A DNA stretch of 64,000 nucleotides from Pustulibacterium marinum (GCF_900116665.1 NZ_FPBK01000015.1:1-64000); one strand, 5' to 3'; shown: positions 22,983 through 40,804, counted from the first letter of the stretch. The notes: a model not told the origin generated them from the sequence alone. Numbers and translations are program-made.

Positions 22983-25388
22983 TTAATAATTTAATGTAAG
23001 TTGTAATCTAAAGTTTCTACCTAGGTCATCTGCATAGTAGCGTTGTCTATTTAAATAGTTACGGTAACTAGTGTCTAAGATGTTATCTACGTAAAAACCT
23101 ATGTTTAAATCGTTTCTTTTAAATGTATTTAGTGTAATCTGAGAATTAAAATGTAATAATCCATATCCCTTTGGAGGTTTACTTAAAGCTACTGTTCTGG
23201 TCACTGTTCCCTCTGATGACGTATAAGTAGCTTCAAAATCGTTATTTGGATAACGAGTTTGGGTAAACACTGTTTGAGCTTTGAGCCCAAGTTGTAACTG
23301 ATGCCATTTTGGAATGTTGAATTTTATTTCATTGGTCCAATTGGCAGCAGGTATATCTATAATTGGAGTTTTTTCTTCTGAATTTTGAGCATACACGTAT
23401 GCAAATGAAGAATTAAGTTTCCATCTATCTGTAATGTTATAAGATGCATCAGCATCTACACCGGTAAAAAATGCATCTGCCTGGCTATATTCCCAAACAG
23501 GAAAAGCTCCTCGTGTGGTTTGCTCAATTCCAGTAGGTTGTAAAACAATAAAATCCTTGATAAAATTGATATACGGATTGATATTAAAATTGAAATCACC
23601 GTATTGTTTTTCAACTCCTAAGCTAATTTTTTTAGAGATCTCTTGTTGTAATCTAAGATCTCCTAGTTCTATGGTCGCAGCGGAATGGTGAAGACCATCA
23701 CTAAACAATTCTGCAGCATTGGGCGCTCTGCTCGCCATACTTGCATTGGCTGTGAAAATGTAATTGTTGTGAACAGATTTGATACCTGCTGTAGCTGAAA
23801 AATTGTGGTAATCAAAAATAGGATTGGTTAACCATTGCGTGTCATAATCTCCAATGATAATATCTTCAAAATCTTCGTCGTAACCACGTTCTGTCCATCT
23901 TGATTTTCTATAATATTTTTGAGCATCAATATGATTAAAATCATAACGAATACCTGCATCTATAATGGTATTATCTGTTAATTGATGTTCGGCTGTAAAA
24001 TAAGCTGCAGCGTTTATTTGTTCATAATCTGGTATAAGTCGTCTTACGCCGGTATCTGGATTAGGAGTGTTCTTTTGATACCCGCCTGAAAGTCCAAAAT
24101 TCATTTTCAACTTCTGAATTGCATCTAGTTGAAAGTCTGTATTTACCGTATGGGTATTCAGTACCATGTCCATAGAAGGCGTGTCACGGTCATCACCTCT
24201 TCGGATATCGTATTCTTTTCTTTGATTGTTTTGAAAATCATACTGAACCGATAATTTTCCTAATTCTGAAAAGCGCTTGTAAAAATCAGCTTTCACCAAA
24301 TGATGTTGTACATCTTGGTATGGATGTATTAAATCATACGTAAAATCATTGATAATCGTGGGCTCATTACTTTCCAAAGCGTCTACTAAATCTCCGATAC
24401 TTCCAATATGAGATGCTCGTAGAATACCTATTTGCGTATCATACAAACTGTAGTAAAGATTGAATCCGTAATCAAATTTTCGAACTCCCAATCCTAGTGA
24501 AAAGTCCTTTTCTGTAGAACCTGTGTTGGATAAGATATAATCTGGAGCTTCATAATCTCCAAATTTCTTGTAGGTTCCCTGTCCTTTTACGTACCAACCA
24601 TTTTGGAAAGACTTGGTCAAAGAAGACGTTAAACTTCCTCCTTGGCCGTTACTAACTCCTGTAAGCGTTGTTTTTCCATAAAGTGAATCAGATTTTATAG
24701 GTTGTGAACCATCAACTATGATTACACCTCCAATGGCGTCACCACCATATTTTAAAGCTGAAGCACCTTTTACAACGGTAATATGCGAAGCTGAATTAAT
24801 GTCCAAATTTGGAGCATGTTCTACACCCCATTCTTGGTCTTGTAAGCGTACGCCATTGTTAATTACTAAAACCCGGCTACTATGCATACCATGGATTACC
24901 GGTTTTACAATAGAACTCCCGGTGCTTAGGGAAGATACGCCACTTACGCTTGTAAGGGCCGTTCCCAAATTACTGCTGCTGTAAGCTTGAATAGCATCTT
25001 CGTTCAGTTCTTTGGTGTTTGAAGAAACTGATGCCGGATTTAATTTAACACCAGAAACGGTTACTTCACCAATTTCTTCTAAGTGGTGTTCAAGCTTTAT
25101 GTTTTGTTTCGTATCACCATCTATATTAAAAGTTACAATAGTGCTCTCACATTCCGGATGCGAAATTTGTAACTCAACAGTTCCGTTACAAAGTTGTGGT
25201 ATAATGTAATTACCATCAAAGTCGCTTGTTACTTCAGTATCTGTGCCTATTACTTGAATTAATGCTCCAAAAAGGGGAGAGCCATCATGAAAATCTGTAA
25301 TAGTCCCTGAAAGGGTTTGGTTACACTCCTGTGCTGAAGCAATCAAAGAAGTTGTCAAAAATAGAATGACAACAAATAATTGTTTCAT
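22983..25388 (-). CDS. TonB-dependent receptor with N-terminal carboxypeptidase-regulatory-like domain
   Basis: Signal peptide. A plug-domain region. 801 aa. The C-terminal residue is aromatic (...LQLTLNY), which is typical of TBDR barrels. Confidence 0.8.
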   Translation of the reverse strand: MKQLFVVILFLTTSLIASAQECNQTLSGTITDFHDGSPLFGALIQVIGTDTEVTSDFDGNYIIPQLCNGTVELQISHPECESTIVTFNIDGDTKQNIKLEHHLEEIGEVTVSGVKLNPASVSSNTKELNEDAIQAYSSSNLGTALTSVSGVSSLSTGSSIVKPVIHGMHSSRVLVINNGVRLQDQEWGVEHAPNLDINSASHITVVKGASALKYGGDAIGGVIIVDGSQPIKSDSLYGKTTLTGVSNGQGGSLTSSLTKSFQNGWYVKGQGTYKKFGDYEAPDYILSNTGSTEKDFSLGLGVRKFDYGFNLYYSLYDTQIGILRASHIGSIGDLVDALESNEPTIINDFTYDLIHPYQDVQHHLVKADFYKRFSELGKLSVQYDFQNNQRKEYDIRRGDDRDTPSMDMVLNTHTVNTDFQLDAIQKLKMNFGLSGGYQKNTPNPDTGVRRLIPDYEQINAAAYFTAEHQLTDNTIIDAGIRYDFNHIDAQKYYRKSRWTERGYDEDFEDIIIGDYDTQWLTNPIFDYHNFSATAGIKSVHNNYIFTANASMASRAPNAAELFSDGLHHSAATIELGDLRLQQEISKKISLGVEKQYGDFNFNINPYINFIKDFIVLQPTGIEQTTRGAFPVWEYSQADAFFTGVDADASYNITDRWKLNSSFAYVYAQNSEEKTPIIDIPAANWTNEIKFNIPKWHQLQLGLKAQTVFTQTRYPNNDFEATYTSSEGTVTRTVALSKPPKGYGLLHFNSQITLNTFKRNDLNIGFYVDNILDTSYRNYLNRQRYYADDLGRNFRLQLTLNY

Positions 25389-25812: not shown

Positions 25813-26124
25813 TTATTTCTTTTTTTTAATAAATCTGCTAAATGTCTTTTTTTCAAAATTCCAGAAGAATTTAAATTGTCCAAAAACAGTTCCCACCAAA
25901 AGAAGTAATGGAAAATAGATGGGCAAAATAGCAATTATTTCAACTATGATGTATAGCACTTTTGCGTACCAGATATCTCCAAAAAATGTTTTAGAAAATC
26001 CCAGAGCATGTAAAATAGGACGTATGATATAGGCCGAAGTGGATCCGGTGATGGCAAAAACAATAAAAATGAGAGTTAATTGAAAATTGGAAGTAACGTT
26101 CCAGCGTTGTTTTAGCTTTTTCAT
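25813..26124 (-). CDS. hypothetical small membrane protein
   Basis: 103 aa with two or three TM helices. Confidence 0.35.
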   Translation of the reverse strand: MKKLKQRWNVTSNFQLTLIFIVFAITGSTSAYIIRPILHALGFSKTFFGDIWYAKVLYIIVEIIAILPIYFPLLLLVGTVFGQFKFFWNFEKKTFSRFIKKKK

Positions 26125-26127
26125 AAA

Positions 26128-26577
26128 TTATATGCGTGGAACAAATGGTCCCAAACGTTGTGCGTATTTGCGTTGAAAGTAAATAAAATAGTTGTAAAGT
26201 TGATAGTTTACTTCGTATCCATAATCAATATTGTTTTGGTAATTAATTTGCATTTCGTACAAATTTGGGTTGTATTGCATGGGTTGTGAAGCTCTACGAT
26301 TCCACTCATTTACATAAAAGATATTTCGGTTTTCTAAAAAAGTCTGAGAATAATAGCCTCTTGGTCTGGCAATTCCCTGTAACCAACTGTTGTAACCAGG
26401 GTCTATAATAATAATTTCATATTCTAGTGAGTCATTCTCTATGGTAACGGTATCGTTGGTTGATTTATTAAAAATATCATTTTCGGAAGCTGAAATGGTA
26501 GGTTTTGGTTGATTGCATGCAGTAATAGTTGCAAGTATTGCAAGAGCAAAAAAGAGATATGTATACCTTTTTTTCAT
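26128..26577 (-). CDS. hypothetical lipoprotein
   Basis: Lipobox ...LATITAC. 149 aa, Tyr/Asn-rich. Confidence 0.4.
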   Translation of the reverse strand: MKKRYTYLFFALAILATITACNQPKPTISASENDIFNKSTNDTVTIENDSLEYEIIIIDPGYNSWLQGIARPRGYYSQTFLENRNIFYVNEWNRRASQPMQYNPNLYEMQINYQNNIDYGYEVNYQLYNYFIYFQRKYAQRLGPFVPRI

Positions 26578-26759: not shown

Positions 26760-27296
26760 ATGGGGACAGTCATAGATTGCTTTATACCTAAAGAAAAAAC
26801 ATACACTATTGAAGAACTGAATAGCATGTTAAGAGCTGTATATTTTGATTGTATGCTTGAGTATGAAAGCTTAGAAAAGTTGGGAAACTATTCGGAGGGT
26901 TTTCATGGTGAATGGTCATTTGAAAATGTAGAGGAAAGTTCAGAGAATTGTACATATATTACAGGTGAAGGCGGTAGTTTTTTTGTAGATATTTATGAAC
27001 ATGTGATTCATATTTGTTGTCTGGAAAGATTTTCTAATCTATATATTGAATTTTCCCCTATTTCTAGAGCTTTGTTGGTTATTTTTAAAGAATTGTGCAA
27101 GACACTGGCTCCAGAAAATACCCAAATGCTTTTGGTAATTGGAGGGAATGGAGAAACCGATGAAATACTAGATAGAATTGCTGAAAACCAAGTTACCATG
27201 CAAGATATTATGGCTGGTTTAGAATCGTTATTTTCTGATCCTGCAAGAATGCCTTCGGATCTAATAGAAAAAAACTGGCTGTTAACTTCTTTATAG
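26760..27296 (+). CDS. hypothetical cytoplasmic protein
   Basis: 178 aa with no recognisable motif. It converges on the XRE regulator with a 6-nt overlap. Confidence 0.4.
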   Translation: MGTVIDCFIPKEKTYTIEELNSMLRAVYFDCMLEYESLEKLGNYSEGFHGEWSFENVEESSENCTYITGEGGSFFVDIYEHVIHICCLERFSNLYIEFSPISRALLVIFKELCKTLAPENTQMLLVIGGNGETDEILDRIAENQVTMQDIMAGLESLFSDPARMPSDLIEKNWLLTSL

Positions 27297-28061
27297 TTTA
27301 TCCTTTAACTTTAAGAATTCCTGCTCTAAGAAACTAAGTTTTTCTTTAATATCCTCAGCTCCGCTATTCGTTTTAATCTCTGGAATTCTGTGATAAAAAC
27401 AATACCGTATTTTCCATAGCATTTGAATATCTTTCAAACTCAGCGTTATATCTTCAATACTTTTATGATCCGCTCTAAGAATTACCTTTTTATCAGTAAG
27501 ATAGAATCGTCTTAAAATTACTTTTTGATTTGCAATCACAACTACAATACTTCCATTAGGAATCTTTTTAAAAACATCTTTTGGAATCAATTCTCCAATG
27601 ACCACATCTTTAGGAAAAAGACCATGATCATGGTCGGTCATTTCAAGATTTTGAACTGTATAACCTAGAAATTCTTTTTGAGTATGTAAAGGAAGTTGGA
27701 GACAAGGAAGTGTTTCCATAAACTCAGGATTTTCAAAGTTATTCAGAAAGTCAGCCTCATTTCTTTCCGTAATACAAGGTATCGATTTGAATTTCTCCTT
27801 TAGTTTTTCTTCTACATTTAAAGATAAATCTCCTTGAAACTTTAGTAATTTATTTACCGTAAGTTCTTTGGTTAGTAAATCGTCTACAGTGATGCTAAAA
27901 TAATTAGCTATTTTTAGTAAGGTATCTATTTTTGGTTCACTTCGTCCTTCTTCATAAGCACCTAGTGTACCACGTTTTAGATCAAAAACATCGGCAAAAG
28001 CTTGCTGACTCATGTTCTTTACATTTCTAATCTTCCTAATATTTTTACCAAAAAAAGACAT
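27291..28061 (-). CDS. XRE-family HTH transcriptional regulator with a LexA/CI-like (S24-fold) C-terminal domain
   Basis: The N-terminal HTH_3 is NMSQQAFADVFDLKRGTLGAYEEGRSEPKIDTLLKIANYFSITVDDLL. The C-terminal beta-rich segment GSIVVVIANQKVILRRFY...KVILRADH has an S24-like pattern. The catalytic Ser-Lys dyad is not obvious, which suggests a non-autocleaving repressor. Confidence 0.6.
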   Translation of the reverse strand: MSFFGKNIRKIRNVKNMSQQAFADVFDLKRGTLGAYEEGRSEPKIDTLLKIANYFSITVDDLLTKELTVNKLLKFQGDLSLNVEEKLKEKFKSIPCITERNEADFLNNFENPEFMETLPCLQLPLHTQKEFLGYTVQNLEMTDHDHGLFPKDVVIGELIPKDVFKKIPNGSIVVVIANQKVILRRFYLTDKKVILRADHKSIEDITLSLKDIQMLWKIRYCFYHRIPEIKTNSGAEDIKEKLSFLEQEFLKLKDKL

Positions 28062-28063
28062 AT

Positions 28064-28195
28064 TTAGCTAATTTTATTTGCAATTATAAAAATATATTGT
28101 ATATTTATCTAAAAATATTAGCTAATATACAAATAAATTGCTAATCAGATCAACTTAGAGAATGTTTGTAGAAATATTTCTAAAATGATTAGCAA
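28064..28195. promoter_or_regulatory. divergent promoter/operator region with four palindromic TTAGCWAA motifs
   Basis: ATTTAGCTAAT at 28062-28072, ATTAGCTAAT at 28117-28126, TTGCTAAT at 28138-28145, and its reverse complement ATTAGCAA at 28188-28195. The paired sites are about 50-53 bp apart. The region is AT-rich with TAnnTTTG-like -7 elements on both strands. Confidence 0.45.
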
Positions 28196-28332
28196 AAGAA
28201 GTAGAATTATTTTTTAAACCAACCGTTATGATTACAGTATTTTTAATAACTTATGCCAAAATTATTTGCATACTAAAATGCTGCTGTGTGCTTTGGGGCA
28301 TTTTATAAAACCAACTTAAAATTTAGTAACGA

Positions 28333-28728
28333 ATGAAAGATCATTTTCAAATCACTAAAAACTATGTATTAGAACTCAACTTTACTATAACTTACGAAAG
28401 CCGCGAAGAAGAAGTGCTGGTAGTACAAAAAGAAGCCTTTGGAATCAAAAACCTGATTATTGGTGTAGCAGCTCCTATATTAATTATGGAGCAGTTTATT
28501 TTCAACATCAACAGTCAAAACGAAAAGGTGTTCAGAAACCTGTTACAGAAGAATCGTGATATTATTCATGGAGCGTTTTGTTTAGATGAAAGTGGTAAAC
28601 GCGTTATTTTCAGAGATACATTACAAATTGAAAATTTAGACCTCAACGAACTCAAGGGTTCGCTAAACTCATTAAGTTTATTAATGAGTGAATACTCAGA
28701 TAAGATTATTGAATTCTCAAAATATTAA
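28333..28728 (+). CDS. hypothetical protein, possibly YbjN-like, first gene of a PspA-flotillin operon
   Basis: 131 aa, cytoplasmic, mixed alpha/beta. Its stop is 11 nt before the pspA-like start. The YbjN assignment is a weak guess. Confidence 0.4.
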   Translation: MKDHFQITKNYVLELNFTITYESREEEVLVVQKEAFGIKNLIIGVAAPILIMEQFIFNINSQNEKVFRNLLQKNRDIIHGAFCLDESGKRVIFRDTLQIENLDLNELKGSLNSLSLLMSEYSDKIIEFSKY

Positions 28729-28739
28729 AGCCATCGATT

Positions 28740-29450
28740 ATGAACCTATTTAAAAGACTATTTAAAATTGGAGAAGCAGAAGCAAATTCTGCTATAGATA
28801 AAATGGAAGACCCTATCAAAATGACTGAACAGGGAATCCGCGATATGAAACAAGATCTTGAAAAAAGCTTGGAGGCTTTGGCACAAGTAAAAGCCATGTC
28901 TATTCGTTCAAAAAATGAACAGGAAGAGTATCAAGATAAAGCAGCTGATTATCAAAGTAAAGCGATTTTAATTTTGAAAAAGGCTGAAAAAGGAGATATG
29001 GAAACTGCAGAAGCAGATAGATTAGCACAACAGGCATTGATCAAAAAACAAGAGTCAGATCAACAAGCTGAGCGTGCAAAATTAGAAGCTAGTAAATTTG
29101 ATGATTCCATTGCACAACTGGAGAAAAACATTCAGAATATAAAAGCAAGTATCAGCAATTGGGAAAACGAATTGCGTACGCTAAAAGCAAGAGTAAAAGT
29201 ATCCAATGCTACCAAAAACCTGAACAAGCAAATGGCAGAGATTGATAGCAGTAGTACCGTTTCTATGTTAGAACGTATGAAAGAGAAAGTAGCCCAGGAA
29301 GAAGCGTTGGCAGAAGCTTACGGAGATATTGCAAATACTTCTAAATCTGTAGATGACGAATTAAATGCAGCCGTAGATACTACCGAAGCAAAAGCTACAG
29401 ACGATTTAGCAAAATTAAAACAACAATTAGGACTTAATAAACAGGAGTAA
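28740..29450 (+). CDS. pspA: PspA/IM30/Vipp1 family protein (ESCRT-III-like)
   Basis: MNLFKRLFKIGEAEANSAIDKMEDPIKMTEQGIRDMKQDLEKS aligns with the E. coli PspA N-terminus ([43 protein letters not shown]). Entirely coiled-coil. 236 aa. Confidence 0.8.
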   Translation: MNLFKRLFKIGEAEANSAIDKMEDPIKMTEQGIRDMKQDLEKSLEALAQVKAMSIRSKNEQEEYQDKAADYQSKAILILKKAEKGDMETAEADRLAQQALIKKQESDQQAERAKLEASKFDDSIAQLEKNIQNIKASISNWENELRTLKARVKVSNATKNLNKQMAEIDSSSTVSMLERMKEKVAQEEALAEAYGDIANTSKSVDDELNAAVDTTEAKATDDLAKLKQQLGLNKQE

Positions 29451-29452
29451 CC

Positions 29453-30163
29453 TTGAGCAACATAGGTCATATTATATTTTCAGAGGTAAATATAACCCTT
29501 ACCATTCTAATGCTTTTGCTGATCGTCTATTGGATTTTAACCATGGTCAGCGGCATTGACTTTGACTACGATGTAGACATCGATATAGATTTGGATGTAG
29601 ACGTAGATGCAGATGCGGGCATAGAAGGTGGAAATATGGATTTTCAGGATATCTCAAACGCAGAGGTAGACAAAGAGCAAGTAATAGGCAACAGAAGACA
29701 ACCGCTAAAGTGGTGGCAAATTGTGCTCATCTATTTCAACTTTGTAGGGCTACCATTTATGTTCACCTTTACCGCCTGGATTTTTATCTGGTGGTTTGCA
29801 ACAGTACTCATTACCAAATTAACGGGTAGCTATGAAAATGCCTTTGGCTTTGTAGTGATGCTTGGAGCCATGATTCCAGCATTGTTTGTTACCAAAATAT
29901 TTACAACTCCTTTTAAAGGATTCTTCAAGAATCTAAATAAAGACGGCGACAAGGCTGTGGAATATTTGGGCAGAACCGGAATCATGTTGTCTAGTATAGA
30001 AGGTGAACGCATGGGAAATGCCGAAGTCACAATCAACGGAGATTCGTATAACATTTATGTAAAGTCGTTAGACGGATCACCCTTGAAATACCAACAAAAA
30101 ATATTAATCATCAACCAGTCTGCAGACAAGAACTCTTTTCTTGTTCAGGCGTATAACAACTAA
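29453..30163 (+). CDS. NfeD-like (YqiJ-like) membrane protein with C-terminal OB-fold and an acidic (D-V/I)n tract
   Basis: Three TM helices. A DFDYDVDIDIDLDVDVDADAG acidic repeat lies after TM1. The C-terminal beta-rich GNAEVTINGDSYNIYVKS...KILIINQSADKNSFLVQ is typical of the NfeD OB domain. Starts 3 nt after the pspA stop and lies immediately upstream of the flotillin gene, as in yqiJK-type operons. Confidence 0.7.
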   Translation: MSNIGHIIFSEVNITLTILMLLLIVYWILTMVSGIDFDYDVDIDIDLDVDVDADAGIEGGNMDFQDISNAEVDKEQVIGNRRQPLKWWQIVLIYFNFVGLPFMFTFTAWIFIWWFATVLITKLTGSYENAFGFVVMLGAMIPALFVTKIFTTPFKGFFKNLNKDGDKAVEYLGRTGIMLSSIEGERMGNAEVTINGDSYNIYVKSLDGSPLKYQQKILIINQSADKNSFLVQAYNN

Positions 30164-30179
30164 ATAACTTTAATAACCA

Positions 30180-32270
30180 ATGGGAGAAATTTTATCAATT
30201 ATCGGAATGGGTGTAGGGCTTGTTCTGTTTTTGATAGTGGTATATTTTGCCATTATCGCAATGTTTTACAAAAAGGTACATCAGGGACAAGCCTTGGTAC
30301 GTACCGGATTTGGAGGAACCAAAGTAGCAACCGACAAAGGTTTGTACGTGGTGCCGGTTTTCCACAGAGTGGAAGTAATGGATATTTCAGTAAAGAAAAT
30401 TCAAATTGAACGTTTATCGCACGAAGGCTTAATCTGTAAAGACAACATGCGTGCAGATATCAAAGTAGCATTTTTCGTTCGTGTCAACAACGATGTTAAT
30501 TTTATAAAGAAAGTAGCGCAAACCATTGGGGTTGCGAGAGCTTCTCGTATAGAAACTTTGGAAGATTTGTTTGAAGCAAAATTCTCAGAGGCCTTGAAAA
30601 CCGTAGGGAAAAAGTTCGATTTTATTGAATTGTACGAAGCACGTCGTGAATTCCGTGATGAGATTGTAGACATCATCGGTACCGATTTAAACGGATATAC
30701 CTTAGAAGATTGTGCTATTGACTTTTTAGAGCAAACGCCTATTTCGCACTTAAAAGCTGATAACATTTTAGATGCAGAAGGTATTAAAAAGATCACGGAG
30801 CTTACGGCAAATCAAAATGTAAAAGCCAACTTAATCAAACGTGATGAAGAGAAAACCATTCGCAAGCAAGATGTCGAAGCACGCGAAGCGATTCTGGCGT
30901 TAGACAAACAATTGGCTGAAAAAGAAGAGCAACAAAAACGTGAGATTGCCAACATCAAGGCTCGTGAAGAAGCAGAAACCTTGAAAGTAGCCGAAGAAGA
31001 GCGTTTAAAATCAGAATCTGCAAGAATTGCTACGGAAGAAAAAGTAAAAGTAGCCGAAGAAAACATGCAACGTCAAATCATTGTAGCTGCTAAAAATAAA
31101 GAGCGTACCAATGCTATTGAAAACGAGCGTGTAGAAAAAGACAGAATGTTAGAAGCTACCGAAAGAGAACGCGTGGTAACACTGGCTCAGATAGAAAAAG
31201 AGAAAGTAGTAGAGGTAGAGAAGAAGAACATTCAAGATGTGATCAGAGACCGCGTGATGTTAGAAAAAGGCGTGGTAGAAGAGCAAGAAAGCATGAAAGA
31301 TATTGAAGCTTTCAAAACTGCTGATCGTGAGAAGAAAGTGAAGATTACCAATGCCGAAGCGAAAGCGCAGGAAGAATTGATCAAAACTATCAAAGAAGCT
31401 GAAGCGAAGAAAGAAGCAGCAAAACAACGTGCCGAAGAAATCAATATCGAAGCAATGGCGCGCAAAGAAGCCAGCGAAAAAGAAGCCGAAGCACGCAAAA
31501 CATTGGCAGAAGCCAAAGCGAAAGAAGAAGCCATTATTGGTATGTCTGAAGCGCAGGTAATGCATGCAAAAGCAGATGCTAGCGAACGTCAGGGAATTGT
31601 AGATGCATCGATCATTGAGAAGAAAGCAAAAGCCGAAGCTGCAGGAATCGAAGCAAAAGCACAAGCCGAATTGAAAGAAGGAAAAGCACAAGCCGAAGTT
31701 ATCAAAGACAAAGCCTTGGCCGATGCTGCCGGAATTGAAGAAAAAGCGGCTGCCATGAAGAAACTAGACGGTGTTGGTAAAGAACATGAAGAGTTCAAAC
31801 TACGTTTAGATAAAGAATTACAGGTAGACTTGGCAAACATTAATATTCAAAAAGAGATTGCAGACGCACAAGCCTTGGTATTGAGCGATGCCTTGAAAAA
31901 CTCGAAAATTGATATTGTGGGTGGAGAAACCATGTTCTTCGATCAAATTGTTGGACAAATTACCAGAGGTAAAGGAATCGACAGATTGGTACAGAACAGT
32001 GAAAACATTCAGCAAGTAAAAGATTCTATCTTAGGCAGCGATGACATTCAGGGAAACTTACTTGAAAAAGTAAAAGAGTTTTCTGCTAAGTATGGCATCT
32101 CTTCAGAAGACCTAAAGAACTTTACCATCGCTAATTTGTTGATGGATCTTAAAAAGAAATCTAACAGTGACAAAGAACACACCATGTTCAACAATTTGTT
32201 AAACCTGGCACAAGGCTTAGGATTGTCCGATAAAACTGTTGGAAGTATCAAAAGAGAACATTTAAAATAA
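30180..32270 (+). CDS. flotillin / SPFH (band-7) family protein, YqiK/FloT-like, extended
   Basis: N-terminal TM helix. The SPFH domain is ...ALVRTGFGGTKVATDKGLYVVPVFHRVEVMDISVKKIQIE.... A long EA-rich coiled coil follows (KAREEAETLKVAEEERLK...AEAKAQEEL...) and a C-terminal flotillin tail. 696 aa, longer than typical bacterial flotillins. Confidence 0.85.
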   Translation: MGEILSIIGMGVGLVLFLIVVYFAIIAMFYKKVHQGQALVRTGFGGTKVATDKGLYVVPVFHRVEVMDISVKKIQIERLSHEGLICKDNMRADIKVAFFVRVNNDVNFIKKVAQTIGVARASRIETLEDLFEAKFSEALKTVGKKFDFIELYEARREFRDEIVDIIGTDLNGYTLEDCAIDFLEQTPISHLKADNILDAEGIKKITELTANQNVKANLIKRDEEKTIRKQDVEAREAILALDKQLAEKEEQQKREIANIKAREEAETLKVAEEERLKSESARIATEEKVKVAEENMQRQIIVAAKNKERTNAIENERVEKDRMLEATERERVVTLAQIEKEKVVEVEKKNIQDVIRDRVMLEKGVVEEQESMKDIEAFKTADREKKVKITNAEAKAQEELIKTIKEAEAKKEAAKQRAEEINIEAMARKEASEKEAEARKTLAEAKAKEEAIIGMSEAQVMHAKADASERQGIVDASIIEKKAKAEAAGIEAKAQAELKEGKAQAEVIKDKALADAAGIEEKAAAMKKLDGVGKEHEEFKLRLDKELQVDLANINIQKEIADAQALVLSDALKNSKIDIVGGETMFFDQIVGQITRGKGIDRLVQNSENIQQVKDSILGSDDIQGNLLEKVKEFSAKYGISSEDLKNFTIANLLMDLKKKSNSDKEHTMFNNLLNLAQGLGLSDKTVGSIKREHLK

Positions 32271-32387
32271 GGGTTGGGGAATCCTGTTGCATGTTACGCC
32301 TGGCCTCCGGGTTGGGAGTAGCATGCTATATTTTGAATGTGAATACTAACAGGAAACTTTTAAAATCGAAAGTTTCCGTTTACCGTT

Positions 32388-35300
32388 ATGAATTTACGTA
32401 TGCAAGAAGAAGATAAAAAACAACCTGATGCGCAAGTGCTCGAAGGCGGAACCTATGAGATTATTCAGGGCCGTTTGCAAAAGCAAAAGCAGGATCTTCA
32501 GCAACGCTTACAACGGTTAAATGAAGATCGTAAAAAGGTATTTGGTTCGTTAGAAACCAAACTGTTGGCCAACAATCGCGTCAGTACAGAAAACAATTGT
32601 ATTACCCGCGACATTGTTACCATAGAATCCTATTGCATTTTTGGCTATAATGTGCATTTCGGACTGCGAACAGAGATTACACTGTCCGATGTGTTCAGTA
32701 TTTATCAGTACCAGGAGCAGCAATTTAAAACGGTGGATTTATCGTTGTTACAAGACGAAACCTTTATCACCGATTTTACGAATCTTTATAAATACTATCG
32801 CAATACCATATTTGCTAAGTTCTCTGTTATTGGGAATTACCTCTATATGGTGTTTCAATTAAGCGATAGTGTAACCGATATCAAAGCGTTTAAATGGTTG
32901 ATCAAAGATGGGCAATTGCACTACATTGACAACCGAAGCGACCATGAGGTAAAATATCCTGCGCAGCACGAATTTAAATGGTTGGAAGCAGGCCGCGATA
33001 ATCAGCGTTACGGCGAACATGCCCATGTTTCCATTTTAGATAAGGTTTTTGTAGAAACCATTGGTGGCGATCTTACCATTAAGGTGGAAGACAATACCAA
33101 CGACGGACAAGGGATTTATTCCGAACCTGTTGAAATGGTAGATCAAACCCTGGATGACGGACAATTCCGTTATGCAGACTTGGGTAACTTGATTGCATTA
33201 GAGATCAAACCCTTTCAGGAGGCACCCCGCTATTTTGTCTACAATCACAAGATCAAAGAGGTGCAAAAGATTGAGAGCATCAAGGAAGCCGCCATCTTAT
33301 TACCGGACGAACAGGGGATTATTTTCCCGAATGGCTATTATTTACAAACCGGAGAGTATCAGGTTTTTGATAGCGATACCGATAACCTGAAGTTTTTAAA
33401 ACGCATTGCTTCGCCAAATGGGGAAGATTACCTGTTTGTGTTCTACGGAGCTGCTTTGGGCACTTATGTCCTCATGCAATACAACGTTATTGAGCAAACC
33501 GTGCAAACACCTATCATTTGTAATGGTTTTACCATTCATGGGAATGGTGAATTGTGCTACTTTAAACAGGAAGAAGAGCAAACCAAACACCACATGATGC
33601 AGATTTGGCAAACACCTTTCTTAAAAGGAGATATTATGCCGTCTCAGCATCAAGATACCTTGTTGTACAAGATAGGGAATAAGGATATTGTGCGTGCTAT
33701 GGCCGAGTCTCAGGAGTTGATCAACTTGTTAAGCAAAGAAGATTCCTATAGCGGATTGTATGCAGACATTGCCAAGCTTTCCAAAGACATTTTAGATGCC
33801 TATTATTGGTTAACGGAGGAAGAAACCCAGCAATTAAAACTGCCCTTAGCAGAGATCAACAAAGCTGCGAATGCCGCTATTGATGAGTTTGCCAAAGTGG
33901 TACAATTAAAGAAGACTGCCGGAAAAGAAACCGAAGTATTACAAGGCAAAGCCGATGCTGTTTTTGGCAAGGTGAAAAGCACTTCCTTTAAATCGATTGA
34001 CGATTTTGTGTTGTTGCTCAACCAATTGCGAACATTGCGTGGCGAAGCCATTGGTTTGTACGAGATCAGGTATGTAGATACGCAATTTATCAAAGGGATA
34101 GAGGAAGAAATCGCCGCACATACCCAAAAAATATCAGAGCGTTGTGTGCAGTTTTTGCTAGACGACAAAGCTTTGGCTCCATATCATGAAAGAGTAGCCG
34201 AAAAAGAGCAGCACTTAGCCGAAATTCACAAAGTAATCGATGCTAAAAAGCTGGAAGAAGAGGTAAATCAGATTGCGAACGATCTGGAGATGTTAATCGA
34301 TATTGTTTCCAATCTTTCTATTGAAGATACTTCGCACTCTACCAAGATTATTGACAATATTTCGTTGATTTTCGCCACTTTAAATCAGTTAAAGGCGGGC
34401 ATTAAAAACAAACGCAAGTCACTGGGTAGCAAAGAAGCCAAAGCCGATTTTGTAGCACAGTTAAAACTGGCCGATCAAAGTATCATCAATTACTTAGATA
34501 TTGCTGATACGGTGGAGAAGTGTGATGAATTTCAAACGAAGATCACCATTCAGTTAGAAGAGCTGGAAGGGAAGTTTGCCGATTACGAAGAATTCATTGC
34601 ACAGATCATTGAAAAGCGCGAAGAGGTGTACAATGCCTTTGAAGGCAGAAAAACCGCCATTGCAGAAAAGCGTAACAAAAAGAGTTTAGCGCTGGAGAAT
34701 GCCGCCGATCGTATTTTAAAAGGAGTTGACAAACGAGCGCAAAGCTTGGGCAGCAACACCGAGATCAATGGGTATTTTGCTTCGGATTTAATGGTGAACA
34801 AGTTGCGCGATATTGTGCAGCAGTTAAAAGAATTAGACGATACCGGAAGGGCCGAAGAAATAGAAACCAAGCTAAAAGTGGCCCGCGAGGATGCCTTACG
34901 CAAGTTAAAAGACAAACTTGAGTTGTACGAAGACGGTGATAAGGTGATCAAGTTTGGGAAACATAAGTTTGGGGTTAACAAGCAGGTGTTAGACCTTACC
35001 ATTGTGTACAAAAATAATAGTTTGCAGTACCATTTAACCGGAACCGACTTTTACGAAACGGTAACCGACAAAACCTTGTTGAATTCCCGCCAGTTATGGG
35101 AACAGGAATATATTTCGGAGAACAATGCCGTGTATCGTAGTGCCTATTTGGCGTATAAATTGTTTACCAGCATTCCTTCCGAAGTCTTGGAAAACGCTAC
35201 TTCCGAAGAATTGTTAAAGATAGTGCAGGAAGAGAGCAGCAGTAATTATTCCGAAGGGTATATCAAAGGCGTGCACGATGTTGATGCAGCCGCTATTTTG

Positions 35301-37274
35301 GAAACCTTGGTGAAAAAGCATGCCAAATTGGGCTTGTTAAGCTTTGATCCGCAGGTGAGAGCCGCTGCACAATTCTTTTGGCATAGTTTAGATACCGAAG
35401 TACAACAGAATTATGACGAATTACTCAAAGCTTCGGGCGCTGTACTCAGCATTTTTCCGGAGTCTAGAGAGTATGAGTTCTTATTGTTAGAGCTTACAGA
35501 TTATATAGCTGATTTTTCGGTGGAATCTGGTTTGTTTGCTGAAGAACTCAGCGCTGAGGTGGCTACGTATTTGTTTGACGAACTCAAAACTGATGCTACG
35601 TTTATGGTCAGTGGCGATGCTTTGAAGCTAAAAGAAGATTTTCTAAAAGCTTTACAAAGCAAACAGGCCGACCTTCAGTTTAGAAACAGTTATGAGAAGC
35701 TCAGCAACTTTGAAGCGCAGGTACGTTTGGTGCGCCAATGGGTAACTTCCTTCATCAAATCGCATCAAAATGAATATGATGTGGCGTATGCTGATGAGGT
35801 GGTGTGTACTTTGTTGTTTGATACCAAAGCGGTACAGAAAAACACCTATGCGCCAGCCACTACGGTGATAGAAGGACTGAAGGGAGACCATGCCAGCATT
35901 AACGATGGTGTGTATGCGTTCAATTACCATGCGTTCACGCGTTTGTTGGCTACGTATGTGGCCGAAACAGTGCCGGCATTTCAGGAATTTAAAAAGGCAA
36001 AACACGAAGTCACCGAAACTTTGAAAGCCGAACTGAAATTACAAGAGTTAAAACCTAGAGTATTGACGTCTTTTGTGCGTAACAAGCTCATAGACCAGGT
36101 ATACTTGCCGTTGTTTGGCGATAATTTGGCCAAACAATTGGGTACGGTGGGCGATAACAAACGTACCGACCGTATGGGAATGCTCTTATTACTGTCGCCA
36201 CCCGGATACGGAAAAACAACCTTGATGGAATACATGGCCAACCGTTTGGGCTTGGTGTTTATGAAGATTAACGGACCCGCTATTGGTCATGAAGTAACCT
36301 CGGTAGACCCGGCATCGGCTACTAATTCTGCGGCACGCGAAGAGTTAAAGAAACTCAACCTTGCTTTAGAGATGGGCAACAATGTAATGCTGTATTTAGA
36401 TGATATTCAGCATTGCAATCCGGAGTTTTTACAGAAGTTTATTTCGCTTTCCGATGGTACCCGTCGTATAGAAGGGGTGTACAAAGAGAAACCCAAAACC
36501 TACGACCTGCGTGGGAAGAAGTTTTGTGTAATTATGGCCGGAAACCCGTATACCGAAAGCGGTGAAAAGTTCCGTATACCCGATATGTTGGCCAACCGTG
36601 CCGATATTTACAATCTGGGTGACATTATTGGCGATACCGCACATTTGTTTAAACTTAGTTTGATAGAGAATGCGTTGACATCGAACCCGGTGTTGCAGCA
36701 ATTGAGCAGTAAGTATTTTGACGATGTGTACAAATTGCTAGATAAGGTAGAAAACAAAAATCTGGAGGTGCAACTAGAGGGCAACCACACCACGCAAGAG
36801 ATAGAAGAGTACGTAGCGGTGATAGAAAAGGTGGTTACCATACGCAATACGGTGTTAAAGGTGAACGAAACCTATATAAAATCGGCTGCGATGGAAGACG
36901 AATACCGTACCGAACCTTCGTTTAAACTGCAAGGCTCGTATAGAGATATGAACAAACTGGTAAGCAAGGTAGTACCTATTATGAATGAGGCCGAATTGCA
37001 GCGCCTGTTGCTATCGCATTACGAGAGTGAGTCGCAAACCTTAACCTCGGCTGCCGAAGCCAACCTGTTAAAGTACAAAGAACTCATAGGTGAGCTCAAT
37101 ACCACCGAGCAAGACCGTTGGGACAGTATTAAAGTAACGTTTCAGAAAAACAACAAGCTCAAAGGCTTTGGAAACCAAAACGAAATGGCACAAGTACTTA
37201 CCCAAATGATGGCTTTTACCGATAATCTGGAAGGCATTAAAAAAGTATTAGAACAAGGACTCAAAAACGAGTAA
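32388..37274 (+). CDS. giant (1,628-aa) multidomain protein: aromatic/Cys-rich N-terminal globular region, ~800-aa coiled coil, C-terminal AAA_5 (MoxR/dynein-like) P-loop ATPase
   Basis: Walker A LLLLSPPGYGKTTL (nt ~36200-36223). Walker B VMLYLDDIQ. Sensor-1 FCVIMAGNPYTE. A putative Arg finger in IPDMLANRADIY. This pattern matches AAA_5/MoxR (DEINRA...ATQNP). Residues ~430-1230 are heptad-rich and helical. Residues ~60-420 are rich in Y/F/W/C (ESYCIFGYNVHFG, ICNGFTIHGNGELCYF). A strong terminator follows. Confidence 0.75.
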   Translation: MNLRMQEEDKKQPDAQVLEGGTYEIIQGRLQKQKQDLQQRLQRLNEDRKKVFGSLETKLLANNRVSTENNCITRDIVTIESYCIFGYNVHFGLRTEITLSDVFSIYQYQEQQFKTVDLSLLQDETFITDFTNLYKYYRNTIFAKFSVIGNYLYMVFQLSDSVTDIKAFKWLIKDGQLHYIDNRSDHEVKYPAQHEFKWLEAGRDNQRYGEHAHVSILDKVFVETIGGDLTIKVEDNTNDGQGIYSEPVEMVDQTLDDGQFRYADLGNLIALEIKPFQEAPRYFVYNHKIKEVQKIESIKEAAILLPDEQGIIFPNGYYLQTGEYQVFDSDTDNLKFLKRIASPNGEDYLFVFYGAALGTYVLMQYNVIEQTVQTPIICNGFTIHGNGELCYFKQEEEQTKHHMMQIWQTPFLKGDIMPSQHQDTLLYKIGNKDIVRAMAESQELINLLSKEDSYSGLYADIAKLSKDILDAYYWLTEEETQQLKLPLAEINKAANAAIDEFAKVVQLKKTAGKETEVLQGKADAVFGKVKSTSFKSIDDFVLLLNQLRTLRGEAIGLYEIRYVDTQFIKGIEEEIAAHTQKISERCVQFLLDDKALAPYHERVAEKEQHLAEIHKVIDAKKLEEEVNQIANDLEMLIDIVSNLSIEDTSHSTKIIDNISLIFATLNQLKAGIKNKRKSLGSKEAKADFVAQLKLADQSIINYLDIADTVEKCDEFQTKITIQLEELEGKFADYEEFIAQIIEKREEVYNAFEGRKTAIAEKRNKKSLALENAADRILKGVDKRAQSLGSNTEINGYFASDLMVNKLRDIVQQLKELDDTGRAEEIETKLKVAREDALRKLKDKLELYEDGDKVIKFGKHKFGVNKQVLDLTIVYKNNSLQYHLTGTDFYETVTDKTLLNSRQLWEQEYISENNAVYRSAYLAYKLFTSIPSEVLENATSEELLKIVQEESSSNYSEGYIKGVHDVDAAAILETLVKKHAKLGLLSFDPQVRAAAQFFWHSLDTEVQQNYDELLKASGAVLSIFPESREYEFLLLELTDYIADFSVESGLFAEELSAEVATYLFDELKTDATFMVSGDALKLKEDFLKALQSKQADLQFRNSYEKLSNFEAQVRLVRQWVTSFIKSHQNEYDVAYADEVVCTLLFDTKAVQKNTYAPATTVIEGLKGDHASINDGVYAFNYHAFTRLLATYVAETVPAFQEFKKAKHEVTETLKAELKLQELKPRVLTSFVRNKLIDQVYLPLFGDNLAKQLGTVGDNKRTDRMGMLLLLSPPGYGKTTLMEYMANRLGLVFMKINGPAIGHEVTSVDPASATNSAAREELKKLNLALEMGNNVMLYLDDIQHCNPEFLQKFISLSDGTRRIEGVYKEKPKTYDLRGKKFCVIMAGNPYTESGEKFRIPDMLANRADIYNLGDIIGDTAHLFKLSLIENALTSNPVLQQLSSKYFDDVYKLLDKVENKNLEVQLEGNHTTQEIEEYVAVIEKVVTIRNTVLKVNETYIKSAAMEDEYRTEPSFKLQGSYRDMNKLVSKVVPIMNEAELQRLLLSHYESESQTLTSAAEANLLKYKELIGELNTTEQDRWDSIKVTFQKNNKLKGFGNQNEMAQVLTQMMAFTDNLEGIKKVLEQGLKNE

Positions 37275-37286
37275 CCTACTATACAC

Positions 37287-37323
37287 AAAACCCCTTTGCT
37301 ATAACTAGTAAAGGGGTTTTTTA
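37287..37323 (+). terminator. rho-independent terminator after the giant ATPase gene
   Basis: aaaacccctttgc-tataactagt-aaaggggtttttt. Confidence 0.75.
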
Positions 37324-37480
37324 TGGTTTGTTATTACTTATATTTCTACGGTTATGAAGTATTTGCTATCTTTTCACAGCATTTTTTAGGAATACTATTT
37401 CATAACTAACACTTACTAACGCTAGGCTAGATAAAAGAATGTGTAGAAGTTTTGTAAATGGATTCTTGATTAAAAATACA

Positions 37481-37915
37481 TTATGGTAACTCATGTGCAT
37501 TTTCATAATCTTCTTGTGTAATGGTAAATTCATAGGTATGCCCTTCTGTATTGATGAATTTTTCTGAAGTAGTCCAGGGCCAATTTTCATTTCCAAAACC
37601 TAAGGATTCATCTCCGCCAATGCTAGTGATGTATCCTTTTCCATTAGGAAATACAAATTGTATAGAATCTATACCGCATATACCATAACCAGCAAAACCA
37701 ATATCTTCATATAAACATTCCTGACCTTTTTCTCCGGCTTGTAAAGAAGTAGTATTTATATCTGTACTATTTTCATAGGTAATAACTTCTAAAACTTCGG
37801 AACTATTATTTTTAATAAATAATCTATAATATTCATATTTACCTTTTTGAGAACAAGAAGAAAGTACTCCTAAAAGAAGTAAATAAAAGATTGGTAGTAT
37901 ACTTTTTAATCGCAT
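37481..37915 (-). CDS. hypothetical lipoprotein
   Basis: MRLKSILPIFYLLLLGVLSSCSQ lipobox. 144 aa. Its start overlaps the stop of the upstream metalloprotease-like gene by 10 nt. Confidence 0.5.
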   Translation of the reverse strand: MRLKSILPIFYLLLLGVLSSCSQKGKYEYYRLFIKNNSSEVLEVITYENSTDINTTSLQAGEKGQECLYEDIGFAGYGICGIDSIQFVFPNGKGYITSIGGDESLGFGNENWPWTTSEKFINTEGHTYEFTITQEDYENAHELP

Positions 37916-39771
37916 ATGTTATACATGTATTGGTTAAATAATTCATTTATGGCAGCATCATCATTTCCATTAATATTCATTATACGTTTTTTCCATCCGT
38001 CAATACCTCTTGAGATATTGAGTGCTGATTGAATTTGAGATAGAGTATAACCAGAAACATTATCAATAGGTTGTACTCCACTCCAAAATCCTGGTGTATT
38101 TTGGTTAAGGTTATCTATTAAATCTACTACAATTGGAGTATACTCGTCAATATCAGCAATAGTTAGAGTTTGTAAACGGTCATTATGGTTTGTTAACCCA
38201 GCATTGAATAAATTAGCGTTATTTTGAGCTTGAGTAGAAACATAATTATTAGAAAGTTGATTGTATCTGTCATTTGTTAAAATAGTTTCTGCGCCTTCTG
38301 CCCAGCTTTCTGCCATAGGTCCTATTCGTTCACATGATGGCCAATTAGCAAAGAAATTTCGATCTAGTCTATAATGACTAGCATGTGTCATTTCATGAAC
38401 TACAGTTCCATATATTCTATCACTACCAGCATATGTGCCTTGACTTTTTCTTCCAACTCGTATTTCTGAATAAAATGATAAAAGAGGAATAAATGGTATT
38501 TGTCCATTAGGGTTTATATCTAAATGATTGGATTGCCCTATTGTATTATTGAATTTAGCACTTATTCGTAACCAACTTTGATTTGGTTTTTTTAACCCAA
38601 ATGTATTGACTGCTCTAGAATAATAATCATATGCTGCATTATGAACTAATGCATAAAAATGACTTCTAACCCCTGTATTATTAAAATCCTGATACCAACA
38701 TTTTCTTTTATACTTACGATGACCTCTATGTCTTGCATCCCAAAATATTGTACCTGCTTTCACTTTAAAACGTTTATCTGAATTTCTAAAGTAAACAGCG
38801 TATTTCACTCTTTTTGTTCTTGTGCTTGATGTTTGAAAATCTCCATTATTATTGGTGTATGCTTTACGTATCACCAACCAACCCCATTTACGTACTTTAA
38901 CTCTTGCTCCTGCTACACCTATGTTTTGGTTTAGAACATCTTCTCTAACTGTAATTCTACCACAAGGATTCCATTTTCTTCTTCTTCCAAATAGTCTAGA
39001 TTCTTGTATATTATCTAGCTCATTTGGTTCTAGTTCATAGTTTATTTGTACATCTTTAACTTTTAATCCTAATCTTTTTAAATCATCATATGTTAATTTT
39101 TCACTAGGATCATTTAAAAAATATGTATGTTCAAATTTTTCATCTTCTTCTAGATTATCAGATATTTTTAATGCTTCTGTATTAAGATCTTCATAAAAAT
39201 CAAGAATTTGTTCTTCTGTAGTAGATGGTGAATCTCTAATTTCATCTTCCTTAGTAAAATGGAGATTATCAATTATTGTATATGGAACATTTGTAGGTAT
39301 TGTATAATTTATAGGTACAACAGAATAGTAAGCTGTAAATGTACTATCAATAGTTCTAGGATCTAAATAAACAGAACCTTCACTTATTACTTCATATTCA
39401 AAAGGTTCATCAGATACGGCTAATATAGTATCATTAATGATTTTATTATATTGAATACTATCTTGAGGTTGAAATTTTACATATAAATGTGTTCTATTTA
39501 TATTGTAATATCCATTTGGGTGTTTTATAGCAGTAGGGTTTTTTAAAAGGTTTTTATAAGCATTAGACATATTTTCAGTAGAACAAGGTATTTCTTTTTT
39601 ATTACCTAGCACAGTAAATTTGCCATCCCCACTTGTCCCTCGAGCAAACTCACTATTATATTGTGATGTGTAAGTGGTTGTATCTTCATAGATATCATCT
39701 TGATTACAAGATATTATTAAACCTAATTGTAATAGGAGTAAAATAAAAATAAATTTAAGTTTTTTTATTGT
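37906..39771 (-). CDS. putative zinc-metalloprotease lipoprotein (HExxH), probably with a non-ATG or mutated start
   Basis: HEMTHASHY (HExxH) with a downstream Glu (AESWAEG), suggesting a gluzincin. The ORF track starts at a GTG (39612). The same frame continues upstream without a stop, encoding IKKLKFIFILLLLQLGLIISCNQDD, a textbook lipoprotein signal peptide. Its first codon is ATA (39769-39771); there is no in-frame ATG/GTG/TTG before the stop at ~39787. Confidence 0.5.
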   Translation of the reverse strand, partial: TIKKLKFIFILLLLQLGLIISCNQDDIYEDTTTYTSQYNSEFARGTSGDGKFTVLGNKKEIPCSTENMSNAYKNLLKNPTAIKHPNGYYNINRTHLYVKFQPQDSIQYNKIINDTILAVSDEPFEYEVISEGSVYLDPRTIDSTFTAYYSVVPINYTIPTNVPYTIIDNLHFTKEDEIRDSPSTTEEQILDFYEDLNTEALKISDNLEEDEKFEHTYFLNDPSEKLTYDDLKRLGLKVKDVQINYELEPNELDNIQESRLFGRRRKWNPCGRITVREDVLNQNIGVAGARVKVRKWGWLVIRKAYTNNNGDFQTSSTRTKRVKYAVYFRNSDKRFKVKAGTIFWDARHRGHRKYKRKCWYQDFNNTGVRSHFYALVHNAAYDYYSRAVNTFGLKKPNQSWLRISAKFNNTIGQSNHLDINPNGQIPFIPLLSFYSEIRVGRKSQGTYAGSDRIYGTVVHEMTHASHYRLDRNFFANWPSCERIGPMAESWAEGAETILTNDRYNQLSNNYVSTQAQNNANLFNAGLTNHNDRLQTLTIADIDEYTPIVVDLIDNLNQNTPGFWSGVQPIDNVSGYTLSQIQSALNISRGIDGWKKRIMNINGNDDAAINELFNQYMYNICD

Positions 39772-39994
39772 TTTATTTATTAGTTAATAATAAGTTTTAC
39801 AAATGTAAGTATAAATGTGTTAAATTAACGTTTCTTTAATATTATTATACGTAAAAACTTATTTTACAACGTAGTCTATTGAGGTGAGGTGAGTGAGTTA
39901 AATCCTATATATAATTATACAATTTTTACCCTAAAACGTACCAATAAAAAACCGCTGCATACACAAGGCATACAGCGGTTGGGTTGGGTAGGGA

Positions 39995-40624
39995 TTAAGG
40001 CGCTACTATGCTGGTAATGGGTGCATAGTATACTTTATCACTCGCGTTGCGGTAGGCTGCCGAAACATAATAGGTAACCCCACTGGTGAGTCCGGTGATT
40101 TCTACACTGGTTTGCTTGCTAGAGACTTGTTGCATCTTAGCCGGATCGGTAATCGTAGAATCATCGGTATAGGCAAACACATAAAAGTCGGCTTGTTTTA
40201 AATTAGTTACCTGCACTAAAATGCTGCCTTTGGCTTTGCCCACTTGCACCGATACAAATTCCGGGGCGTTTAATGGCTTGCTAGGTTCGGGAGTCTTGGC
40301 TAACGGAAACCCGCTGCTTTGTAGTTTGTCTTTATCGCCATAAGCTTGCAGATTTACCATACTGGCTAGTTGGCGCAAAAGGTCTAAAACTTCAGCACGG
40401 GCATTGTTTTTAGCAGTAGTATTGGTGCGCGTACCATTAGGACTTAGTGTATTGTACAAATCTAAATAGGTGGCATCGGCCGTAGCTAAATTTGTAAGCA
40501 TACCTTCCGCCAAAGTAAAATTGGTATTACCGGTAAGGTTGCTAAGAATATGATTCGCAAACGGACTTACTTCGGCATCTTTTAAATAAAAATAACTTAT
40601 TAATACTTTATAGTTTTTCATCAT
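39995..40624 (-). CDS. hypothetical protein (possible C-terminal Ig/Fn3-like domain) in a GC-richer island
   Basis: 209 aa. The C-terminal TSVEITGLTSGVTYYVSAAYRN... is Fn3-like. Local GC is visibly higher than the flanks. Confidence 0.4.
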   Translation of the reverse strand: MMKNYKVLISYFYLKDAEVSPFANHILSNLTGNTNFTLAEGMLTNLATADATYLDLYNTLSPNGTRTNTTAKNNARAEVLDLLRQLASMVNLQAYGDKDKLQSSGFPLAKTPEPSKPLNAPEFVSVQVGKAKGSILVQVTNLKQADFYVFAYTDDSTITDPAKMQQVSSKQTSVEITGLTSGVTYYVSAAYRNASDKVYYAPITSIVAP

Positions 40625-40804
40625 TTTTAAGTTGTAAAATTGATATTATATGTTGTTTTGATAAAGAGTATAGTGTAGTTGCCAACAGGCAAATACAGCT
40701 TAGCCCAAGCCAAATGGTTTTGGTTGAGAGGTCCATGCGTTTGCTACACATAGGCTAGTACATATAGAATCAGCAGTAGTGCTTTTAGCTTATAATTGTC
40801 TGTT

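Follow-up and report, generated by a model that had tools for sequence, protein, structure and literature searches.

In this work, we analyzed a stretch of 64,000 nucleotides (nt) of Pustulibacterium marinum DNA (GCF_900116665.1 NZ_FPBK01000015.1:1-64000; hereafter, the window) and, within it, a module that ends with the gene of a giant AAA+ ATPase of 1,628 amino acids (aa). The module comprises a minus-strand gene for a helix-turn-helix (HTH) regulator, which diverges from five plus-strand genes encoding a CesT/Tir-like protein, a PspA/IM30 protein, an NfeD-like membrane protein, a flotillin and the giant ATPase, and it is closed by a strong terminator (Table 1). P. marinum belongs to the Flavobacteriaceae, and the giant ATPase is 100% identical to an NCBI entry of this species. 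An earlier reading of this DNA, made by a model from the sequence alone (the sequence-only reading), had singled out the same genes, and open reading frames (ORFs) were found with the content and at the positions that it gave. The tight packing that it described also holds: the spacers between the five plus-strand genes measure, in order, 11, 2, 16 and 117 nt, a trivial difference from the 3-16 nt given for those up to the flotillin gene. The terminator placed after the ATPase gene corresponds to a hairpin with a 15-bp stem, a 4-nt loop and a T-run, which is the top-scoring site of this kind between 26.5 and 38.5 kb.

Table 1. Features of the P. marinum module, with positions counted from the first nucleotide of the window
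Feature	Coordinates	Strand	Evidence
Regulator gene	27291-28061	-	ORF call
Divergent control region, 271 nt	28062-28332	.	Intergenic
CesT/Tir-like gene, 131 aa	28333-28728	+	ORF, Pfam
PspA/IM30 gene, 236 aa	28740-29450	+	ORF, Pfam
NfeD-like membrane protein gene, 236 aa, TTG start	29453-30163	+	ORF, transmembrane prediction, homologues
Flotillin-type SPFH gene, 696 aa	30180-32270	+	ORF, Pfam
Structured spacer, 117 nt	32271-32387	+	Folding
Giant ATPase gene, 1,628 aa	32388-37274	+	ORF, Pfam, AlphaFold2
DUF3686 region, aa 36-473 of the ATPase	32493-33806	+	Pfam, model, Foldseek
AAA+ module, aa ~1230-1450 of the ATPase	36075-36737	+	Motifs
Intrinsic terminator ending the operon	37287-37320	+	Hairpin scan

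The Pfam matches of the giant ATPase were DUF3686 (3e-180, aa 36-473), DUF7902 (2.5e-27, aa 594-678) and, at aa 1266-1390, AAA_5 (3.9e-8) and AAA (2.4e-6). No match fell outside these regions, and the Pfam scan thus gave no sign of a MIT, VWA, nuclease or DNA-binding domain in the protein; a search of PDB sequences with its N-terminal 1,101 aa returned no match. AlphaFold2 models of residues 1-720 and 700-1628, with predicted local distance difference test (pLDDT) values of 87.1 and 86.9, show an N-terminal helix (residues 15-52), a beta-propeller, helical bundles, a middle alpha/beta domain, the AAA+ domain and a conserved C-terminal helical domain, in this order. About 26 strands make up the beta-rich domain at aa 58-408 in the model, and its Foldseek matches in the PDB were all beta-propellers, namely Elp1, the WDR domain of DCAF1, Vps18, the clathrin N-terminal domain and YncE, with E-values down to 2.3e-7. 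What had been taken from the sequence for an aromatic/Cys-rich globular head is modelled here as a divergent beta-propeller. No transmembrane (TM) segment was predicted in the ATPase, which would be a soluble protein.

In the fold search, the AAA+ domain was structurally nearest to those of MoxR, midasin and dynein, with Vps4 ranking well below, and together with the AAA_5 match this bears out the AAA_5/MoxR/dynein-midasin type that the sequence-only reading had assigned to aa 1230-1450. A placement in the classical AAA clade had been hinted at by a PDB sequence search with the C-terminal 528 aa, which gave only short matches to VAT/p97 around Walker A, and was overturned by the fold search. 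The domain carries a Walker A motif SPPGYGKT (G1273-T1277), a Walker B motif with D1338-D1339 (DDIQH), the sensor-1 residue N1386 and the arginine finger R1404, all of them invariant in 42 diverse homologues with 28-50% identity; the AAA+ segment is also the most conserved part of the protein. Degenerate Walker motifs, which would have spoken against a functional AAA+ ATPase, were therefore not what we found. In the same 42 homologues, a GVHDxDA motif at 35268-35288 (aa 961-967) of the middle domain, which has the helical arms on one side and the AAA+ module on the other, contains the invariant residues G961, H963 and D966, and G857 and E911 are likewise invariant.

The proteins encoded upstream were assigned as follows. 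The NfeD-like protein of the window had no direct Pfam match even at an E-value of 10; it has three to four predicted TM segments, an acidic loop of DxD repeats and a C-terminal beta-rich (OB-like) domain. Among 46 of its homologues, 19 matched Pfam YqiJ_N and two matched NfeD, and the best PDB match of the family profile was YuaF (2k14), with a weak E-value of 0.029. Given the YqiJ_N matches, YuaF as best structure and a topology that agrees, the label NfeD is acceptable in the provisional form of YqiJ/YuaF-type NfeD-like. The flotillin matched Band_7 (6e-15) and consists of a TM region at residues 1-34, the SPFH domain, an E/A/K-rich coiled coil of ~350 aa (about residues 220-560) and a conserved C-terminal region; it gave no match in a PDB sequence search and is strongly conserved among 69 ATPase-linked homologues of several phyla. 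The 131-aa protein, formerly labelled YbjN-like, is more precisely a CesT_Tir_1 protein (PF22550, 2.5e-54 over its full length), whereas its YbjN match (0.002) was below the Pfam cut-off. The 236-aa protein matched PspA_IM30 above the cut-off (2.7e-42) and, with residues 1-229, the Vipp1/PspA structures 6zvr and 8qbw (4e-17), matches by which we assign it to PspA/IM30 within the ESCRT-III superfamily.

We then took a census of the neighbourhood. A homologue search with the N-terminal 700 aa of the ATPase gave 933 clusters at 50% identity (E-values up to 1e-3), with full-length family members typically of 1,600-1,900 aa, and a scan of one genome per GTDB species placed the family in at least 588 species. 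The census covered the 80 loci most similar to the flavobacterial query, which span Bacteroidota, Planctomycetota, Verrucomicrobiota, Desulfobacterota, Kiritimatiellota and Clostridia, plus eight hand-picked distant loci; neighbours were searched with iterated profiles of the window proteins and counted over the 60 loci in which 6.5 kb or more were available on the upstream side. The flotillin gene was found upstream of the ATPase gene and on the same strand in 58 of these 60 loci, and an NfeD-like gene upstream of the flotillin gene in 56. The trio of NfeD-like protein, flotillin and ATPase was also present in all eight distant loci, from Natronoglycomyces, Streptomyces, Deinococcus, Proteus, Vibrio, the Pseudomonas plasmid pQBR103 and two metagenomic clades at 26% identity, thus extending to Actinomycetota, Deinococcota and Pseudomonadota (three loci). 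Because it recurs across phyla, the arrangement lies far beyond chance, in keeping with the suspicion of the sequence-only reading that the ATPase and its neighbours are not merely juxtaposed. Of the neighbours whose constancy it had proposed to check, flotillin and NfeD have a near-universal link to the ATPase, and PspA was adjacent in 32 of the 60 loci and in one of the eight distant ones. The full set with regulator, CesT-like protein and PspA was found in 31 loci, all from Bacteroidota, and the trio alone in 23; the CesT-like gene was always accompanied by PspA. The CesT-PspA pair and the regulator are therefore an add-on to the trio in Bacteroidota. None of the window genes that flank the module was kept beside it in the other loci, which sets the module boundaries at 27291-37323.

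A second, independent link of PspA to the flotillin-ATPase trio exists on pQBR103, a 425-kb environmental megaplasmid of P. fluorescens SBW25 (record 84437-97641). There, the trio lies downstream of another PspA module in the order YjfI-PspA-rhomboid-DUF2491-DUF350-DUF1190-glutathionylspermidine synthase, in which a polyamine module accompanies an annotated YjfI family protein that our CesT profile did not detect. With CesT-PspA in 31 Bacteroidota loci and YjfI-PspA on pQBR103, the association of PspA with the trio takes at least two forms.

The census and the domain analysis also bear on the name under which this ATPase family circulates. In PGAP and Pfam it goes by "DNA repair ATPase" or "ATPase involved in DNA repair", which would make it an SMC/Rad50-like coiled-coil protein with membrane genes as incidental neighbours, and its long helical regions would suit such a protein. 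However, it has no ABC/SMC head, its sole NTPase being the C-terminal MoxR-type AAA+ domain; the scan that revealed no nuclease or DNA-binding domain is matched by a neighbourhood with no repair genes, and the linkage to flotillin and NfeD can hardly be incidental when it is near-universal. Our literature search found no experimental work on the ATPase and no paper mentioning DUF3686. We give this explanation next to no probability, and we flag the widespread database name as one that finds no backing in the domains, the structure or the genomic surroundings and that looks like an annotation artefact passed on between entries.

The sequence-only reading did not recognize the gene combination as a described system. 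However, an identical architecture, regulator included, was published by Ravi et al. in 2024 (mSystems 9:e00847-23, PMC11237479), so that the combination itself is not a discovery. These authors described the pairing of CesT/Tir with PspA and an operon that joins this pair to three further genes, those of a 3TM YqiJ/YuaF protein, a Band-7/flotillin protein and a beta-propeller-coiled-coil-AAA+ protein; their Table S3 lists Dokdonia donghaensis DSW-1 (ANH61663.1) with the same gene order and a divergent "cHTH+Protease" regulator. They also noted a shortened, more widespread trio and proposed a chaperone-like role in membrane dynamics for the neighbourhood. PspA-band 7/FloT-NfeD-HTH neighbourhoods were mentioned as well by Popp et al. 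in 2022. Gene order, orientation, domain architecture and the divergent cHTH+protease-like regulator are the same in P. marinum, with no structural difference, and the ATPases of two other Dokdonia strains (not D. donghaensis itself) are 72% identical to that of P. marinum. By sequence comparison, we regard the P. marinum locus as the orthologue, in another flavobacterial genus, of a module already described in silico. What is new here is the count showing that the ATPase tracks flotillin and NfeD, the MoxR-clade assignment of its fold, the degenerate state of the S24-like regulator domain and the candidate operators presented below.

The sequence-only reading had drawn a parallel to Vps4 and suggested an ATP-driven tether or remodeller of PspA and/or flotillin polymers. 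In the Vps4-like form of this model, the ATPase would be the bacterial counterpart of Vps4, which binds PspA polymers and disassembles or recycles them with ATP, flotillin serving as a platform only. The P. marinum operon combines genes for ESCRT-III-superfamily, SPFH and AAA+ proteins, as do Vps4-ESCRT-III systems of archaea and eukaryotes, in which SPFH genes are found at archaeal ESCRT loci (Makarova et al. 2024, PMC10936438). According to a review from 2025, PspA has no Vps4-like disassembly factor in bacteria (PMC7619361), and Ravi et al. 2024 (PMC11237479) suggested ESCRT-like analogies for links between PspA and AAA+ proteins. Besides the PspA genes of the P. marinum operon and of the other loci counted above, the independent fusion on pQBR103 and a PspA gene 6 kb downstream in locus L081 are in agreement with this proposal. 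In contrast, the ATPase had no nearby PspA in 28 of the 60 loci (23 of them with the flotillin/NfeD-like pair only) and in six of the eight distant loci, while it almost never occurred without flotillin/NfeD. The AAA+ fold lies outside the Vps4/classical AAA clade, the Pfam scan gave no MIT domain, and the pore-loop-1 position reads GHEVTS, with no aromatic residue. A Vps4-like role is possible for the lineages that contain PspA and would leave the many PspA-less loci unexplained; as a general account of the ATPase we consider it unlikely. Since the ATPase tracks the flotillin and NfeD-like genes and PspA only in some loci, a remodeller of the flotillin scaffold is favoured over a Vps4 counterpart and is, judged from these comparisons, its most likely identity. 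The census points to flotillin/NfeD, not PspA, as the primary partner of the ATPase, and the mechanistic emphasis is placed there.

Our preferred reading, to which we give about an even chance, is that of a conserved membrane-dynamics module in which an NfeD-like/flotillin scaffold is served by a dedicated giant MoxR-type AAA+ remodeller, with CesT-PspA added in Bacteroidota. The nearest known operons are the NfeD2-SPFH2 operons yqiJK of Escherichia coli and yuaFG-floT of Bacillus subtilis (Hinderhofer et al. 2009, PMC2636767), in which a YqiJ/YuaF-type gene lies directly upstream of the flotillin gene, the place occupied in P. marinum by the putative YqiJ/YuaF-type gene. Their flotillins share the N-terminal anchor, SPFH domain and coiled coil with the P. 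marinum protein, which is longer. These operons are not known to contain genes for an AAA+ ATPase, PspA or a CesT-like protein. For the coupling of an SPFH scaffold to a dedicated AAA+ enzyme at the membrane, the working analogy is HflK/C-FtsH, together with the prohibitin-m-AAA protease, pairings of a kind that is presented as established in the literature. FtsH, however, is a membrane-anchored member of the classical AAA clade with a protease domain, whereas the giant ATPase is predicted to be soluble, is of the MoxR type, has no protease and carries a beta-propeller and long helical arms; moreover, the coupling at the P. marinum locus is deduced from gene linkage only.

Starting from the gene content, domain folds, motif conservation and gene linkage observed here, the flotillin-centred module could work as follows. 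The YqiJ/NfeD-like protein and the long flotillin would build an oligomeric scaffold at the cytoplasmic face of the inner membrane, to which the soluble MoxR-type ATPase would be dedicated. The latter would oligomerize through its C-terminal AAA+ ring, and its beta-propeller heads, borne on the long helical arms, would dock on flotillin/NfeD assemblies, so that regulated ATP binding and hydrolysis might lead to their assembly, remodelling or dismantling, in parallel with HflK/C-FtsH. In Bacteroidota, the trio would have acquired the pair of CesT-like chaperone and PspA, the latter presumably as a membrane-sealing effector that is held or delivered by the chaperone and recruited to the flotillin platform. 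In this regard, the B. subtilis SPFH protein YdjI is cited as needed for the membrane localisation of PspA (PMC10936438, PMC7619361). The divergent XRE-type repressor would have been acquired together with CesT-PspA and probably silences the operon until a membrane-related signal arrives.

For the assembly, regulation and recycling of flotillin cages and PspA polymers in bacteria, an operon family found in so many species offers a candidate enzyme. It is tempting to speculate that the giant ATPase is the first dedicated ATP-driven (dis)assembly motor for the flotillin cage and that, with CesT-PspA, the set forms an ESCRT-like analogue for membrane repair, composed of an SPFH platform, an ESCRT-III-like polymer and a non-Vps4 AAA+ recycler. 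This bolder version is tentative and on balance doubtful; if true, it would explain the turnover of flotillin and PspA assemblies in bacteria.

Several points weigh against the preferred reading. First, the ATPase differs from the MoxR-family proteins CbbQ, NorQ and RavA and from the AAA_5 domains of midasin and dynein in having a single AAA+ module after a 1,200-residue N-terminal extension and a Walker B motif with DD instead of DE. With this DD pair, rapid hydrolysis of the kind seen in motors cannot be taken for granted. A DDIQ Walker B motif is functional in DnaA, an analogy by which the DD pair would suggest regulated, switch-like hydrolysis rather than inactivity. In addition, MoxR ATPases normally work with VWA partners, and no VWA/MIDAS partner was found among the operon proteins or flanking genes. 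Two of the 60 loci (L055 and L056) have no nearby flotillin, and the 80 plus eight loci of the census are a sample of a family of at least 588 species and 933 clusters. Besides, the support consists of genes, sequence comparison and models, from which we infer all contacts between the proteins, the direction in which the scaffold is remodelled and the signal that induces the operon. Finally, the unrelated insertions between the flotillin and ATPase genes in ~20 loci, together with the structured spacer found there in P. marinum, indicate that the ATPase may be transcribed or regulated partly on its own.

At this flotillin-ATPase junction, the 117-nt spacer contains two strong hairpins (~32289-32326 and 32352-32377) and has a minimum free energy of -42.1 kcal/mol (z -4.09), with none of 200 shuffled sequences folding as well; it matched no Rfam family. 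The possibility that it is a repeated (REP-like) or conserved element was discarded, since it occurs as a single copy in the window and is not conserved in the 88 loci; possible identities are an attenuator, a processing site or an insertion remnant. The inserts of the other loci (L002, L004, L015, L021, L030, L043, L044, L052, L053, L066, L067, L077 and others) encode RAYT-like transposases, DUF559-like endonuclease-fold proteins, lipoproteins and small TM proteins. This mixed set of mostly unrelated genes argues against a hidden conserved component, and the junction looks like an insertion hotspot.

The regulator has an XRE/Cro-type HTH at its N-terminus (HTH_3, 6.3e-12), and each of the 31 loci carrying CesT-PspA has a homologue of it that is placed divergently in the same way. 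The XRE/S24-like designation it had received stands for the HTH and less so for the rest: the C-terminal Peptidase_S24 match (22.7 bits) is under the Pfam cut-off of 23.3, and an alignment of 33 members showed a strongly conserved HTH and a poorly conserved S24-like part, in which M141 and R184 alone are partly conserved and no catalytic Ser/Lys dyad is conserved at the expected positions. This makes self-cleavage of the LexA type unlikely, and the C-terminal part is more probably a non-catalytic sensor or dimerisation module. In the divergent control region, ATTAGCWAA sites lie at 28064-28072, 28117-28126 and 28188-28196, the second being a perfect 10-bp palindrome (ATTAGCTAAT). Of the six ATTAGCWAA matches in the whole window, four fall in these 271 nt, and the related 8-mers TTAGCAAA and ATTAGCAA are present in 12-14 of the 31 orthologous intergenic regions. 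We consider the sites candidate operators of the XRE-type regulator, a function deduced from their position and recurrence. A sigma-70 promoter scan, which is unsuited to Bacteroidota promoters, gave nothing above shuffled expectation, and an Rfam search of 26.5-38 kb gave no match near gathering scores.

The resemblance of the regulator to the CI/LexA architecture, and its weak matches to PADLOC HTH and control-protein models, raise the question of whether the module is an anti-phage or abortive-infection system, in which the propeller-AAA+ protein would sense infection, flotillin and PspA would alter membrane integrity and the XRE/S24 protein would act like a phage repressor. The patchy distribution across phyla, megaplasmids included, and the mobile genes such as RAYT-like transposases at the flotillin-ATPase junction could be seen in the same light. 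Nevertheless, a scan of the six proteins against PADLOC-DB 2.0 gave only those generic HTH matches for the regulator, the other proteins having none or E-values of at least 0.003, the window showed no defence genes in the neighbourhood of the module, and 50,697 phage records held no homologues of the N-terminal 700 aa of the ATPase. The S24-like domain lacks the catalytic dyad, and entire families of Flavobacteriia have kept the trio well conserved in sequence and in synteny, a pattern that would sooner be expected of a housekeeping or stress function. A defence role is accordingly very unlikely, and the membrane-dynamics module built on flotillin and NfeD remains our preferred reading.

Some further observations concern the composition and surroundings of the module. 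The guanine-plus-cytosine (GC) content is 0.40-0.42 over 30001-36000 (flotillin and ATPase genes) compared with 0.30-0.35 in the flanks, and the adenine-thymine skew is strongly positive over the flotillin gene, a departure that may reflect the E/A/K-rich coiled-coil codons or a horizontal origin. On the 3' side of the terminator, 37366-42056 contains minus-strand ORFs of 144, 568, 209 and 205 aa with no Pfam match, which are not kept next to the module elsewhere; with a GC content of 0.296 at 38-40 kb, this stretch may be recently acquired DNA. The other neighbours in the window are ordinary, among them genes for the anaerobic ribonucleotide reductase NrdD (42594-44375, minus strand) and a TonB-dependent receptor (22983-25388, minus strand), with DUF6146 and DUF6787 genes at 25813-26577. 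As a by-product of the BLAST searches, identical 12-nt matches at 2414, 2901 and 3391, ~489 nt apart, suggest a gene with long tandem repeats at about 2414-3402.

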